DNA of 64,000 nucleotides from Candidatus Latescibacterota bacterium (GTDB lineage: Bacteria > Latescibacterota > UBA2968 > GCA-2709665), in assembly GCA_965116875.1 (NCBI GenBank), contig OZ220733.1, forward strand, positions 2,528,001 through 2,592,000, written 5' to 3'. The notes under the pieces are model-generated. The model was not told the origin of the DNA, searched no databases, and saw nothing but the letters and a program-made list of their open reading frames with translations. Below are positions 1-16,987 of this stretch, piece after piece. The translations under genes were made by a program, and so were the position numbers. Positions within the stretch are counted from its first letter, which is position 1; each line of letters begins with the position of its first letter.

Positions 1-18
1 ACAACGCCCAAAGGGTAC

Positions 19-1563
19 TCAAGCAACTTGGGGTGAGTCAACTCCAAAATGGGGGTCGGCTTCCGCTCCATACTTTTCCTTATAGGTTGAGATAAAATCC
101 CGATCCTCACAAATACAGCTGCCAGTCCCGGCCTTCAAAGCCGGCTGGGGAGAAGGATCGCGTTCCGTTAAGGGTTGCATGACGTCCAGTCTGCGCACAA
201 GGGTTCTGCGTTGATTACCGTCGGACAGCACGTCGCGCACCGTTTCCGCAGCCAGCAGCACGCCAGCGAGTGCCGACTGGAAAGCAAGCGGTACTTGCAG
301 TTCTCTAGGTGTGGGTCCGGCTTCTCCGAGTGGTATAATGCCGCCACCACAGATTCCCTCTATCCAAAGCTCATCTATTGGCCTATCTACGTATGGTTCC
401 ATTGACTCGACTGGAATCGCCCAAGCTGCAGCAACAGCTTCGCAGATCACCTTGCCGGTCGCTTGTCGATCTCCCAACCGAAAGCGAACCTGATCCCTGA
501 GTTGAGGGATCCTAAGACCTTCAGCGACTAATTGGTCCTGGCTCTTGGATTTCTGGGCTGGCAAGTAAAGGCAGGCTAGGCAGGCGTCACGACCCAAGAA
601 GGTATGACAAGACACGCCGAGATCGCCGGCTTGGGTCCACCCGTTAACTATCCATCTTGGCAAACTCCCTTGTACAGCTCGCCTGTCATGGGCGGAGTCG
701 AGGGCAACCAGAACGCGATCCCACGTGTAGCCCTTGGCTACAAGGAAGGATGCCCAGGTACCCAGATGAAGCAACGCCTGTAGCGATCCGTCGAATTTCC
801 CTCCAACGATTTCAACCTTTTCGCCGCCTTCATCGCCCCGTGCACAAAGTACGTAACGCTGGAGATTGCTGAGCTCCACGACTTGTGGATCTATTAGGTG
901 GATCTCGCCACTGAGTGGTGTGCGCGTTAGGGCCCACGCCGCGCCATTGCCGACCGCTCCAATGCCGACCAGCGCAAGGGATTCCGTCAGTGTGGTCGCT
1001 GTCAGCTTAGGAAAGCAATCGCCGTAGGGAGGGAAACTGACGTCCGTGTCAAGCAGGGATGCGCCGTTCGGGAGAAAGAGAAATCGAAAAAGGTTAGCTC
1101 CCGCCAGGCAGGCGGCAAAGCCTGCTCCAAAGGGGTTGCCTAGATCGCTGGTATTGTATGGCCCCTCAGTTCCGACCTTAGCCAGCCAGCCATCGCAGCC
1201 AGCGAATAAGGTTGGTGTGTCAATGGTGGGCGCACCCTTGCCGACAGCTAGACCAACATTGGCAGTACCCTTCCTAGACAACTCGATGTTAGGGTTGATG
1301 TTACTGGCCAGTGCCATTAGTTCATCGGCGAGCCGATTGCCCTCAGAAACGGTGGAAAACACCAAAGCCGGGTACAAGCGGGCCGCTAACCTGACAAAGA
1401 GATCAAGAAGCTCGCGTCCGTCTCGACTGTCCGCCGCATCTGCGCCGAATGAAATAGCCACTCGGACACCCTCAAGCTTTTCGGTGAAGGCGTCGATCTG
1501 AAAGCCTTGGAGGACTTGTGAGATGGCGACCGCGTCACGATGAAAGTAATCAGCCAACGACAT
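19..1563 (-). CDS. bilD: E1-like ubiquitin-activating enzyme: N-terminal inactive adenylation-like domain + ThiF adenylation domain with Cys insert (BilD-like)
   Basis: 514 aa. Motifs: GIGAVG nucleotide-binding loop, DPQVVELSNLQRY, ALDS, Zn ligands C328xxC331 and C483xC485, candidate catalytic C405 (ICGGG). Last gene of a Ubl-E2-JAB-E1 operon. Confidence 0.85.
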   Translation of the reverse strand: MSLADYFHRDAVAISQVLQGFQIDAFTEKLEGVRVAISFGADAADSRDGRELLDLFVRLAARLYPALVFSTVSEGNRLADELMALASNINPNIELSRKGTANVGLAVGKGAPTIDTPTLFAGCDGWLAKVGTEGPYNTSDLGNPFGAGFAACLAGANLFRFLFLPNGASLLDTDVSFPPYGDCFPKLTATTLTESLALVGIGAVGNGAAWALTRTPLSGEIHLIDPQVVELSNLQRYVLCARGDEGGEKVEIVGGKFDGSLQALLHLGTWASFLVAKGYTWDRVLVALDSAHDRRAVQGSLPRWIVNGWTQAGDLGVSCHTFLGRDACLACLYLPAQKSKSQDQLVAEGLRIPQLRDQVRFRLGDRQATGKVICEAVAAAWAIPVESMEPYVDRPIDELWIEGICGGGIIPLGEAGPTPRELQVPLAFQSALAGVLLAAETVRDVLSDGNQRRTLVRRLDVMQPLTERDPSPQPALKAGTGSCICEDRDFISTYKEKYGAEADPHFGVDSPQVA

Positions 1564-1565
1564 CT

Positions 1566-2042
1566 CTAACAGACCTCTATAAGATTACTTAGTGAAGGGC
1601 TTATTTCGAGCCACCCGTATTTTCCGAGACGATAAGCGGCAATACCACTTGATCCCCAACCGTCGCGCCCGAAGTTGGGAAGAACGATGGATAGGCTACC
1701 GACCAAGGTGGTTATCGGGAAGGTCTCGTCGGTTTTTGAGTGATAGGCATCCGTTGGATGGCCGTGGACCTGTACGCCTATTACCTGCTTTGCCTCGTAA
1801 AGCCACACGTTCAAACGATGCAATTCGGAGCCGTCAACTCGTACGCAGAGACCTGAATCAAGTTTGTAGGAGACTTGGTCCGGGATATGCACATTGGCGA
1901 CGTTAAAAGTGTCGTGATCACGTGTACCTGACCAGACTACGAACAGCTCGTATCCATCCTCGCCCGCCGAAAGAATCGCCTCCACGGTTTCGCGTATGTA
2001 ACAGGCCGGGATTCGAAAACGCCGCACGCCTATTAGGTTCAC
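1566..2042 (-). CDS. bilC: JAB/JAMM metallo-isopeptidase (deubiquitinase, BilC-like)
   Basis: JAMM signature: upstream Glu (GYELFVVW) and QVHGHPTDAYHSKTD. Start reassigned to GTG 2042, which overlaps the E2 stop (GTGA) and has a GGAGG RBS; 158 aa. Confidence 0.85.
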   Translation of the reverse strand: MNLIGVRRFRIPACYIRETVEAILSAGEDGYELFVVWSGTRDHDTFNVANVHIPDQVSYKLDSGLCVRVDGSELHRLNVWLYEAKQVIGVQVHGHPTDAYHSKTDETFPITTLVGSLSIVLPNFGRDGWGSSGIAAYRLGKYGWLEISPSLSNLIEVC

Positions 2043-2644
2043 TGAGGCGCCTCCGAAACAGCAAAGGAGATCTGTGGTACAAGGTTGACACCCAAGTCGG
2101 TCACTGGTTCGAGGCCGTATTTGGAAATCACGCCCAAGAGGCGAACCAGACGACCACCGCCTGCGATCCTGTGAATTTCCCAATGGTCTCCGGAGTGGCC
2201 TGGGTGGTCGTGGTACTCCTTGACCCCTGCCACACAGAGGAAGGGTAGGTCTTCGGGGGAATAAGCTTGCATCAGGTCCTGCACCCTAGTACTTCGCATC
2301 TTAGTGCCGTCGGGCATGACCACCTCCGGCCCAAGGATCGTTTGAGGGAGACGTGTTGGGAGCTCTTTGAATACAAGGGATCGTCCAGAGAATGGATCGA
2401 TCAGACGAACCGAAGGCGGCTCAACATCATAGTTCGTATAGTCAAATTGGACGGCCGTCACAATCGTCGGTGGGCTTGTTTTTTTTGAAGCCAGAACAAC
2501 GACTGCCACGGGCCATTGTGCCTTCACGAGAAACCAGCCGCGAGCGTGATAGTCAGCCTCGAGGGACCGGAAGTCGGCGATCTCCCGCTCAAACTTCGCC
2601 TGTGACACTACCGGGTCGACATACTGTTCGGCTTCACTAGCCAT
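2039..2644 (-). CDS. bilB: E2-like ubiquitin-conjugating enzyme (BilB-like)
   Basis: Start reassigned to ATG 2644 (MASEAEQ), 201 aa. FDYTNYDVEPPSV resembles the UBC-fold YPxxPP turn; PFLCVAGVKEYHDHPGHSGDHW carries candidate catalytic C137. Confidence 0.8.
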   Translation of the reverse strand: MASEAEQYVDPVVSQAKFEREIADFRSLEADYHARGWFLVKAQWPVAVVVLASKKTSPPTIVTAVQFDYTNYDVEPPSVRLIDPFSGRSLVFKELPTRLPQTILGPEVVMPDGTKMRSTRVQDLMQAYSPEDLPFLCVAGVKEYHDHPGHSGDHWEIHRIAGGGRLVRLLGVISKYGLEPVTDLGVNLVPQISFAVSEAPQ

Positions 2645-2903
2645 GGCCGCCCACCCCGGCTTTGAGATTAAGGAAAAGGCGAACCTTTTCATCAAAGCCA
2701 TAGTCCTCGATCTTTTTGTCCAGGTCGAGCAGGTTTCCATCGGCGTCACGGAGTTCCCAGTTTTCTGGCGGCTGGCCGGAGTTTGCTGTTTGTCGCAAGG
2801 CATCCGGAATGATCGCGCGGAGTGGATCATCCTCGACAGCATCGACGACCGTGGGTTGTCCGTTGACGACCACTGTAATCGAGATTTTCTTTGGAATGGA
2901 CAT
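2637..2903 (-). CDS. bilA: Single-domain ubiquitin-like beta-grasp protein (DUF2604/BilA-like)
   Basis: 88 aa with AAGGAG RBS. Beta-grasp pattern (ISITVVVNGQ...WELRDADGNLLD...LFLNLKAG) and C-terminus AGVGG-HG. Confidence 0.85.
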   Translation of the reverse strand: MSIPKKISITVVVNGQPTVVDAVEDDPLRAIIPDALRQTANSGQPPENWELRDADGNLLDLDKKIEDYGFDEKVRLFLNLKAGVGGHG

Positions 2904-2958
2904 CGATTGGTCTCCTTAAATGTGGACATCGGCTGATCCTGTTGGCAACGACATTTCA

Positions 2959-2987
2959 AATATAATACACGGAATTCATTAAATCAA
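2959..2987 (-). promoter_or_regulatory. Putative sigma70 promoter of the Ubl operon
   Basis: TTGATT-N17-TATATT on the minus strand in an AT-rich patch ~55 nt upstream of the Ubl start. Confidence 0.55.
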
Positions 2988-3063
2988 GTGAAATTTGTGA
3001 CAAGCGGGATGATCAGAGGAAAATCGTCGGCCCGCGACTACCGCTTGCACCATTCACGCGAAT

Positions 3064-3093
3064 GTCGGTACGCCTCGATCGAGGCGTACCGAC
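3064..3093. repeat. Perfect 30-bp palindrome
   Basis: GTCGGTACGCCTCGA|TCGAGGCGTACCGAC, no spacer and no mismatch. Confidence 0.9.
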
Positions 3094-3217
3094 CTCGATT
3101 CAAACACGTCGCCAGGTAAGTCTTCGTCGCCCGTGATGGACCCTCGCGTACTTACTATCCAGCGAATTGCCTTATACCGATGTTTTCCCGAAATTCCCGA
3201 TATTTGCTGCATAGACC

Positions 3218-16935: not shown

Positions 16936-16987
16936 ACGTCATTGAGCCCGCAGAAGGTTATCGATCGTTTCCCTCACGATAGTGAAT

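Follow-up and report, generated by a model that had tools for sequence, protein, structure and literature searches.

At the left-hand edge of a 64,000-nucleotide stretch of the genome of Candidatus Latescibacterota bacterium (contig OZ220733.1; G000:C1:2528001-2592000, here called the window), four co-oriented genes encode a ubiquitin-like protein (Ubl) together with an E2, a JAB peptidase and an E1. To which known system do these genes belong, is this copy intact and of foreign origin, and what might control it? An earlier reading of the letters, made without database searches (the sequence-only reading), had seen in them a minimal, laterally acquired antiphage operon of the Bil (bacterial ISG15-like) kind, namely of Type II. 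Our analysis indicates that the locus is very probably an intact Type II BilABCD module on a 7.8-kb horizontally acquired islet. The class of the four-gene core is already known, structurally solved and biochemically characterised, and this copy is a further member. The module is made up of five genes. The fifth, called gene 5 below, is found with its Bil clade in all loci inspected and is part of the module; the word 'minimal' therefore had to be dropped, as this gene for a probable CapS-like regulator, just past the window edge, belongs to it too. Positions below are those of the window, and negative numbers lie to the left of its start.

The four-gene core and its class

The identity of the four proteins was taken from matches in the Protein Data Bank (PDB), and residues were read from alignments against the numbering of the paper on the Type II system of Ensifer aridi. 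For each protein one chain of the E. aridi Type II Bil structures was found far ahead of other PDB entries. These chains were 8tyz_A for BilD, the E1 (1.1e-103 over residues 1-510), 8tyz_C for BilB, the E2 (4.2e-45), 8tyx_B for BilC, the deubiquitinase (DUB; 2.3e-30), and 8tyx_A and 8tyz_B for BilA, the Ubl (about 2e-25). All four proteins are full-length homologues of chains in the structures 8TYX, 8TYY, 8TYZ and 8TZ0. In Pfam, BilA, which has a single beta-grasp domain, matched DUF2604 (7.8e-29), BilB matched Metal_CEHH (1.1e-49) and BilD matched Prok-E2_C (PF14459; 2.5e-21) as well as ThiF (6e-10); no Pfam match was found for BilC. Passages of Chambers et al. (10.1101/2023.09.26.559546) re-read DUF2604, Metal_CEHH and Prok-E2_C as Ubl, E2 and inactive E1 adenylation domain, respectively.

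All residues that the E. aridi study mutated or singled out are kept here. In the E1, Arg9, Arg236 (in S232NLQR236) and Cys405 align with Arg9, Arg246 and Cys417 of E. aridi, the nucleotide loop G200xGxxG205 is present, and the cysteines C328, C331, C483 and C485 of the predicted zinc-binding site align with C340, C343, C491 and C493; in Type II Bil this structural site is built by the crossover loop and the C-terminus and supports the binding of the E2. In the E2, C137, E143, H145 and H150 align with C138, E144, H146 and H151. The DUB has E32, H93-x-H95, S102 and D105, and of these E32 and D105 correspond to E33 and D106, both of which were mutated in E. aridi. The sequence-only reading had called E2 Cys137, the JAMM residues E/HxH/S/D and the E1 GxGxxG, SNLQR, zinc site and Cys405 intact, and all of them are present in the alignments; the inactive adenylation-like N-terminal half that it had proposed for the E1 was matched as well. 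Its description of the Ubl stood in part. The Gly-Gly pair is there as G85-G86, with Gly86 aligned to E. aridi Gly97, but it is not C-terminal, because the open reading frame (ORF) goes on to His-Gly. BilA with this tail is therefore probably a precursor that requires trimming before activation. In E. aridi BilA the tail is a single extra alanine, which is removed by BilC according to passages of the same preprint (10.1101/2023.09.26.559546).

The genes lie on the minus strand in the order bilA (2903..2637; 88 residues), bilB (2644..2039; 201 residues), bilC (2042..1566; 158 residues) and bilD (1563..19; 514 residues). AAGGAG stands 8 nt ahead of the bilA ATG, and the bilA stop and the bilB ATG overlap by 8 nt within ATGGCTAG. 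The bilB stop and the GTG start of bilC share a GTGA overlap, with GGAGG upstream; this start is backed by homologues, whose alignment begins at residue 1 and directly after the bilB stop. A gap of 2 nt separates the bilC stop from bilD. The ORF coordinates thus confirmed the compact arrangement that had been read from the letters. That the operon could be an inactive, decaying remnant is brought to mind by a related copy in locus L009 (genome G061), which has no bilA, a bilB without its first ~28 residues and an internal TAA in bilD. We consider this very improbable for the present copy, in which all five ORFs are open and the starts, junctions and catalytic residues are conserved.

The assignment to Type II, which the sequence-only reading had also made, holds on full-length homology, the defining gene order, the CEHH motif and a single-domain BilA. 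The order Ubl-E2-DUB-E1 is the one described in passages on the Type II (CEHH or '6C') system of E. aridi TW10 (10.1101/2023.09.26.559546). Shared with that system are an E1 of inactive and active adenylation domains with a CYS insertion and a four-Cys zinc site, a CEHH-type E2, a JAMM DUB and a single beta-grasp Ubl with a conserved Gly plus a short tail. Type II Ubls carry 0-9 extra residues after the conserved Gly, as stated in passages of that preprint; the tail is Ala in E. aridi and His-Gly here. The closest relatives differ as well, being metagenome-assembled genomes (MAGs) labelled Dehalococcoidia, Solirubrobacterales or Chloroflexi and metagenome contigs, and not Rhizobiaceae. The identity to the rhizobial copy on pNGR234a, which is near-identical to that of E. 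aridi, is 57% for BilA, 43% for BilB, 38% for BilC and 41% for BilD. BilD is matched at E<=1e-30 by at least 1300 protein clusters, among which the 119 clusters listed besides our own are 68-77% identical. In four related loci (L015, L016, L017 and L025) no stop codon separates bilA from the in-frame bilB, which yields a fused Ubl-E2 precursor, and the Ubl part of L025 has two tandem beta-grasp domains. A go-back joint in a contig of run X3, labelled as a sponge metagenome, is consistent with a duplicated Ubl domain.

The Type I BilABCD of Collimonas sp. OK412 has the same four roles, the same gene order and the same E2 Cys/His pair (Hor et al., 10.1101/2023.09.04.556158; also described in a passage of Chambers et al., 10.1101/2023.09.26.559546). 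However, its BilA consists of two beta-grasp domains, whereas BilA here has one, and the Glu and His of the CEHH motif, which are Type II-specific, are both present here. The single-domain Ubl together with this Glu/His therefore places the locus in Type II and not in Type I. The E1/E2/JAB logic in mobile, defence-associated operons is also seen in Bub and in Type II CBASS (cyclic oligonucleotide-based antiphage signalling system) with Cap2/Cap3. This locus differs in that it lacks fusions of Ubl with E2 or of DUB with E1, a DUF6527 protease and a CD-NTase. A Cap2-like CBASS E1 was rejected as an identity for BilD because the PADLOC E1-E2 (Cap2) models match a loop of ~50 residues only.

What tells against the assignment comes from the PADLOC Bil models. 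They matched BilB (2.4e-06), BilC (8.6e-10) and BilD (1.9e-14) weakly and did not match BilA. The same weak models, with BilA unmatched, and the single-domain BilA led us to reject Type I. Models for BilA, BilB and BilC are missing from NCBIfam, and in RefSeq the proteins of a rhizobial copy are named 'DUF2604 domain-containing protein' (BilA), 'putative metal-binding protein' (BilB), 'Mov34/MPN/PAD-1 family protein' (BilC) and 'E2 ligase fold family C protein' (BilD). Weak PADLOC matches, absent NCBIfam models and generic RefSeq names mean that routine annotation would miss the Bil call.

Gene 5 and the palindrome upstream of bilA

Gene 5 (214 residues) lies on the minus strand at -43..-687 (G000:C1:2527313-2527957; 14957..14313 in L002), 61 nt downstream of the bilD stop. 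The first 18 nt of this spacer are positions 1..18 on the same strand, and the rest is to the left of the window. No same-strand terminator-like site was found between bilD and gene 5, and a terminator-like hairpin follows directly after gene 5 (L002 14291..14279). The choice of its start is backed by the alignment of homologues. There are at least 252 of these, none with a descriptive name, and the 119 listed besides our own are 62-77% identical.

A gene-5 homologue adjoins Bil in all four genome loci retrieved with BilD. In two MAGs labelled Dehalococcoidia it lies downstream in the same orientation, and in two labelled Solirubrobacterales it is found upstream and reads divergently. In the metagenome loci retrieved with gene 5 it likewise adjoins Bil (5 of 5). 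When an even sample of 301 genomes from the class of L009 was searched, gene 5 was found in four, 48-299 nt downstream of BilD, and these were the same four that have a close BilD (69-70% identity); one further genome has a 31%-identical E1 only and is without gene 5. In the decayed L009 copy gene 5 is intact, 299 nt downstream. Forty of the 120 listed gene-5 clusters have a longest contig exactly as long as that of one of the 120 listed BilD clusters, and the remaining 80 are uninformative because the BilD list covered just 120 clusters out of at least 1300. In addition, a 5,884-nt contig of run X3 matches L026 5089-8915 with 167 differences (95.6% identity). This segment is exactly gene 5 through bilA (-911 to 2915), and the remainder of the contig is unlike the islet, which indicates that the five genes travel together. 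Twelve rhizobial plasmids carry a Type II BilD at 38.6-41.1% identity, but no gene 5 was found in them at E<=1e-3, a further difference from the E. aridi system. Gene 5 thus occurs with Bil in its own clade and was not found in the rhizobial plasmids, and is therefore a marker of the clade and not a trait of the whole family.

One promoter ahead of the operon had been proposed from the letters, and a single sigma-70-like site was indeed found in the 4 kb scanned, at 2987..2959 on the minus strand (-35 TTGATT, 17-nt spacer, -10 TATATT; 9/12 match). Its position is conserved in related loci. The operator-like inverted repeat TTCACT-N6-AATGAA at 2975..2992, which has no strand, encloses the -35 hexamer and is the putative gene-5 site. 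We aligned the upstream regions of seven loci (our own, L010, L023, L024, L025, L011 and L012), which are about 50% identical. Invariant among them are the block TTCACT and, six bases later, TGAA, as well as the A and T of the -10 and a CA about 10 nt upstream. TTCACT-N6-A[AGT]TGAA occurs exactly once each in our own locus, L010, L011, L012, L024 and L025, upstream of bilA, and L023 has a variant with one mismatch. From the end of the palindrome to the bilA start codon there are 42-47 nt in the relatives and 71 nt in this genome. Allowing up to one mismatch, the window has two matches against 0.04 expected, and the whole genome has four sites against one for a reversed control. The second match in the window (16969-16986, TTCCCTCACGATAGTGAA; one mismatch) is far from the operon and is probably due to chance. 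These observations suggest that a dimer of the gene-5 winged helix-turn-helix (wHTH) domain may bind the palindrome TTCACT-N6-AGTGAA. For the homodimer itself, a prediction with two copies scored 0.40 against a mark of 0.42 and gives no verdict.

Could gene 5 instead be a hitch-hiking or independent transcription factor, with the palindrome bound by another protein? We consider this improbable. In favour of this reading, its family matches are weak, and here it is placed downstream of the operon and not at the promoter. Yet all 12 further Bil loci with a gene 5 have it next to Bil, and it changes to the divergent-upstream position in L011, L012 and L015-L017, the palindrome of L011 and L012 lying in the intergenic region common to gene 5 and bilA. 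In addition, none of the 12 rhizobial Type II plasmids was found to have gene 5, and L018 (pNGR234a), the single rhizobial locus looked at for the palindrome, is likewise without it.

What kind of protein does gene 5 encode? The AlphaFold model of the full-length protein has a pLDDT of 85.5 and a predicted TM-score of 0.81. Its Foldseek matches are all MarR/ArsR-type winged helices, which span roughly the last 65 residues (E about 6e-3), and we regard the wHTH domain as clear. For a separate model of residues 1-130 (pLDDT 69.7) no structural match was found at E<=0.001, and the best TM-scores were those of the STAS protein SpoIIAA (1tid_D and 1th8_B; TM 0.52-0.59, root mean square deviation 2.8, 91 columns). 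A profile of 37 homologues matched V. cholerae CapS (9Z72/9Z73) over both domains with E 0.014, and this was its sole two-domain match. As judged from these comparisons, gene 5 probably encodes a CapS-like STAS/wHTH repressor. For the N-terminal domain the ESM Atlas gave a best score of 0.82 and one cluster with DUF4325 in 11% of its members, which we treat as a lead only. A likeness to Csa3 (CARF-wHTH) was rejected (Foldseek alignment with TM 0.29 and root mean square deviation 11.8).

Several results weigh against a CapS-like repressor at this promoter. Pfam MarR models match 33 of the 37 gene-5 homologues below the curated cut-off, the SpoIIAA match has E 0.1, with a pLDDT of 69.7 for the model behind it, and the E of 0.014 for CapS is weak. 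The number of promoter-like sites is not above chance, as 2.6 +/- 1.5 were expected in shuffles. Moreover, L015-L017, whose gene-5 proteins are 44-46% identical, have no occurrence of the palindrome and carry another repeat, CACTT-N13-AAGTG.

The comparison with CapS itself is of interest because of what the two do not share. CapS is a STAS-wHTH repressor on palindromes at the promoters of Bub, CBASS and a few Bil operons, and upon DNA damage a serine that is absolutely conserved in it is phosphorylated by CapK, the kinase encoded directly upstream, according to passages of PMC13373217. All 443 of 443 capK genes are followed by capS, and five Bil operons are capKS-linked in the CapK/CapS datasets described there (PMC13373217). 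In common with CapS (structures 9Z71-9Z73), gene 5 would have an N-terminal STAS-like and a C-terminal MarR-like wHTH domain in about 185-215 residues, an association with an immune-type ubiquitin-like operon and a palindrome over a promoter element. However, CapS has its capK partner, whereas none stands beside gene 5: no kinase domain was found among the islet ORFs, and a kinase of the PF13581 type, the one family searched for, was found within 20 kb of the Bil locus in 0 of 6 genomes. The phospho-serine of CapS, in STAS helix 2, is Ala68 in the gene-5 protein, and across 37 homologues this position is S in 19, A in 12, L in 5 and V in 1. The capS gene lies between capK and the operon, whereas gene 5 is downstream of the operon or divergent, and the half-site is TTAA for CapS and TTCACT here. 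With no nearby kinase and no conserved serine, we therefore call the protein CapS-like and not CapS. We found no description of a kinase-less CapS-like gene in Bil operons in the literature searched; supplementary operon tables, which were outside this search, may list one. The regulators named in passages of the Bil preprints are CapH/CapP and CapW only (10.1101/2023.09.26.559546; PMC11601603).

The islet and its flanks

Lateral acquisition, which the sequence-only reading had proposed, is supported by the distribution of the module among relatives. Among 60 relatives, of which 14 share the genus, a further 7 the family, 31 the order and 8 the class, no full-length BilD was found, and five of the 60 have just 57-65-residue matches to the ThiF loop. 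The metC-like gene, the neighbour upstream of the operon, has an orthologue in 11 of the 14 congeners (88-94% identity). In all 11 the distance between katG and the metC-like gene, on the same strand, is 82-571 nt, against 7,842 nt here. When four such empty sites of congeners were aligned with our locus, homology was lost at about L002 10398-10405 and regained at about window 3207-3217. Metagenome contigs also join across the islet: one of 906 nt from run X4 connects L026 1389 with 9217 across 444 other letters, and a contig of run X3 connects L026 1389 with 9227, where 9217 and 9227 correspond to window 3217 and 3227. Both contigs come from relatives without the islet. Run X4 also has low-depth contigs 97-99% identical to several parts of the islet, besides the empty site of a relative. 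Given the empty sites of the congeners and the 60 relatives in which no full-length BilD was found, we regard lateral acquisition of the islet as supported.

The base composition was checked with a sliding window and agrees with the lower GC that had been noticed by eye. The GC content of 19-2987 is 0.547, that of the remainder of the window 0.611 and that of the two flanking genes 0.63, and only 2 of 245 sliding 3-kb windows have a GC of 0.55 or less, both of which overlap the operon. The islet as a whole, 7.8 kb between katG and the metC-like gene, has a GC of 0.54.

The upstream neighbour bears on a reading in which the small protein would be thiocarboxylated and not conjugated, as in sulfur-carrier systems of ThiS/MoaD with ThiF/MoeB type. 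This neighbour, the metC-like gene, encodes a pyridoxal phosphate (PLP) enzyme of Cys/Met metabolism, and the E1 contains a ThiF nucleotide-binding loop, seen in the Pfam ThiF match (6e-10) and in NCBIfam matches to ThiF/MoeB. We nevertheless consider a sulfur carrier next to impossible. The NCBIfam matches score 18-25 bits, where the cut-offs are 152-510, and are confined to ~60 residues of the nucleotide-binding loop; an E2 with its catalytic Cys and a JAMM peptidase are present, and BilA is a homologue of DUF2604/BilA proteins. The PLP gene is conserved beside katG in congeners without the operon, and is therefore a native flank whose adjacency is accidental. With katG and the metC-like gene as native flanks, the statement that no sulfur-carrier client genes are adjacent held.

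The upstream non-coding part of the island (2904..3207; no strand) reaches the right-hand junction. Inside this inserted DNA, ~80 nt upstream of the bilA -35, is a perfect 30-bp palindrome (3064-3093; 15-nt arms, no spacer), which has a single copy in the genome and no T-run after it; possible roles are those of a second operator or of a terminator serving the upstream gene, or it may be a scar of the insertion. No Rfam family reached its gathering score across the 11-kb region. At the left end of the islet there are fragments of an IS1595-type transposase (L002 10552-11195; PF12762, 5e-09), followed by an Ala-rich ORF of 354 residues (L002 11281-12345; GC 0.61) that belongs to no family. A Cys-rich ORF of 354 residues with 15 Cys (L002 12482-13546, minus strand) lies 1.5 kb before the window start and has a GC of 0.50, the lowest of the islet. 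It has weak Pfam zinc-ribbon matches only, no PADLOC or NCBIfam match and a best ESM Atlas score of 0.78 with nothing usable, and it is not adjacent to Bil in any related locus.

Proposed control and role of the module

All chemical steps proposed here are carried over from the E. aridi proteins, and the repressor role of gene 5 and its operator are our own proposal from sequence comparison. In the passages of 10.1101/2023.09.26.559546, ATP-dependent thioesters of the Ubl with E1 and with E2, isopeptide conjugation and pre-processing by the DUB are known for the E. aridi proteins only. By analogy, a single promoter would drive bilA-bilB-bilC-bilD and most likely gene 5 too. BilC, as a JAMM zinc peptidase, would cut His-Gly off the BilA precursor and expose Gly86, which the active domain of BilD would adenylate, with Arg9 supplied by the inactive domain and with Arg236 and the GxGxxG loop taking part. 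BilA would then be held as a thioester on Cys405 in the mobile CYS domain of BilD. From there it would move by transthioesterification to Cys137 of BilB, with His150 alongside, while BilB is docked on the zinc-stabilised C-terminal element of BilD. BilB would join BilA to target lysines via an isopeptide bond without an E3, and BilC would reverse the modification. The gene-5 protein, sitting on the palindrome over the -35, may repress the operon until some signal relieves the repression.

What would such a modification serve? We lean slightly towards an anti-phage or anti-mobile-element role, and the mobile, low-GC and sporadically distributed module fits defence cargo. The earlier claim that the Ubl is conjugated to phage structural proteins had to be narrowed, as conjugation of this kind and an antiphage effect are demonstrated for one Type I system only and not for Type II; the modified phage protein is the tail fibre (10.1101/2023.09.04.556158; 10.1101/2023.09.26.559546). 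Two points also count against a defence role. The targets and biology of Type II Bil are 'thus far unknown' in the passages of a 2024 preprint by the group that defined Type II (PMC11601603), and PADLOC and Pfam recognised no defence gene besides Bil on the islet.

The same enzymology could also serve a stress-response or housekeeping modification of proteins, with the CapS-like regulator answering a non-phage signal. We hold this to be possible but rather doubtful. The authors of the Type II work themselves write that the pathways 'may constitute stress response pathways', and targets and consequences are unknown in those passages (PMC11601603). The islet, moreover, lies between katG and a trans-sulfuration gene and not in a classical defence island, and PADLOC found no other defence gene in it. 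On the other hand, passages of 10.1101/2023.09.26.559546 report Type II Bil operons in the vicinity of CRISPR and further immune systems, and together with CapH/CapP regulators, and the related Type I system is phage-protective (10.1101/2023.09.04.556158; 10.1101/2023.09.26.559546). That the module is mobile, low in GC and sporadically distributed is likewise typical of defence cargo.

For the Type II Bil family, the four-gene core adds nothing mechanistic beyond the E. aridi structures, and its value is comparative: it comes from a clade far from the rhizobial Type II systems, with a precisely delimited insertion site, a linked regulator and a conserved operator. The less ordinary feature is the kinase-less CapS-like gene 5 with this conserved operator. 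The clade in which it is fixed is abundant in metagenome assemblies. That a large, mostly uncultured Type II Bil clade has a fixed kinase-less CapS-like repressor acting on TTCACT-N6-AGTGAA over the bilA -35 is a proposal that could, in our judgement, go either way. With no CapK and no conserved phospho-serine, the trigger would therefore be sensed in a way unlike the DNA-damage kinase switch; the STAS domain might bind a ligand or protein directly, or the Ubl pathway itself might feed back on the repressor. If the proposal is true, the kinase-less repressor would be the first experimental handle on Type II Bil induction, and the kinase-free pair of repressor and operator would offer an easy entry to the question of what induces these systems.

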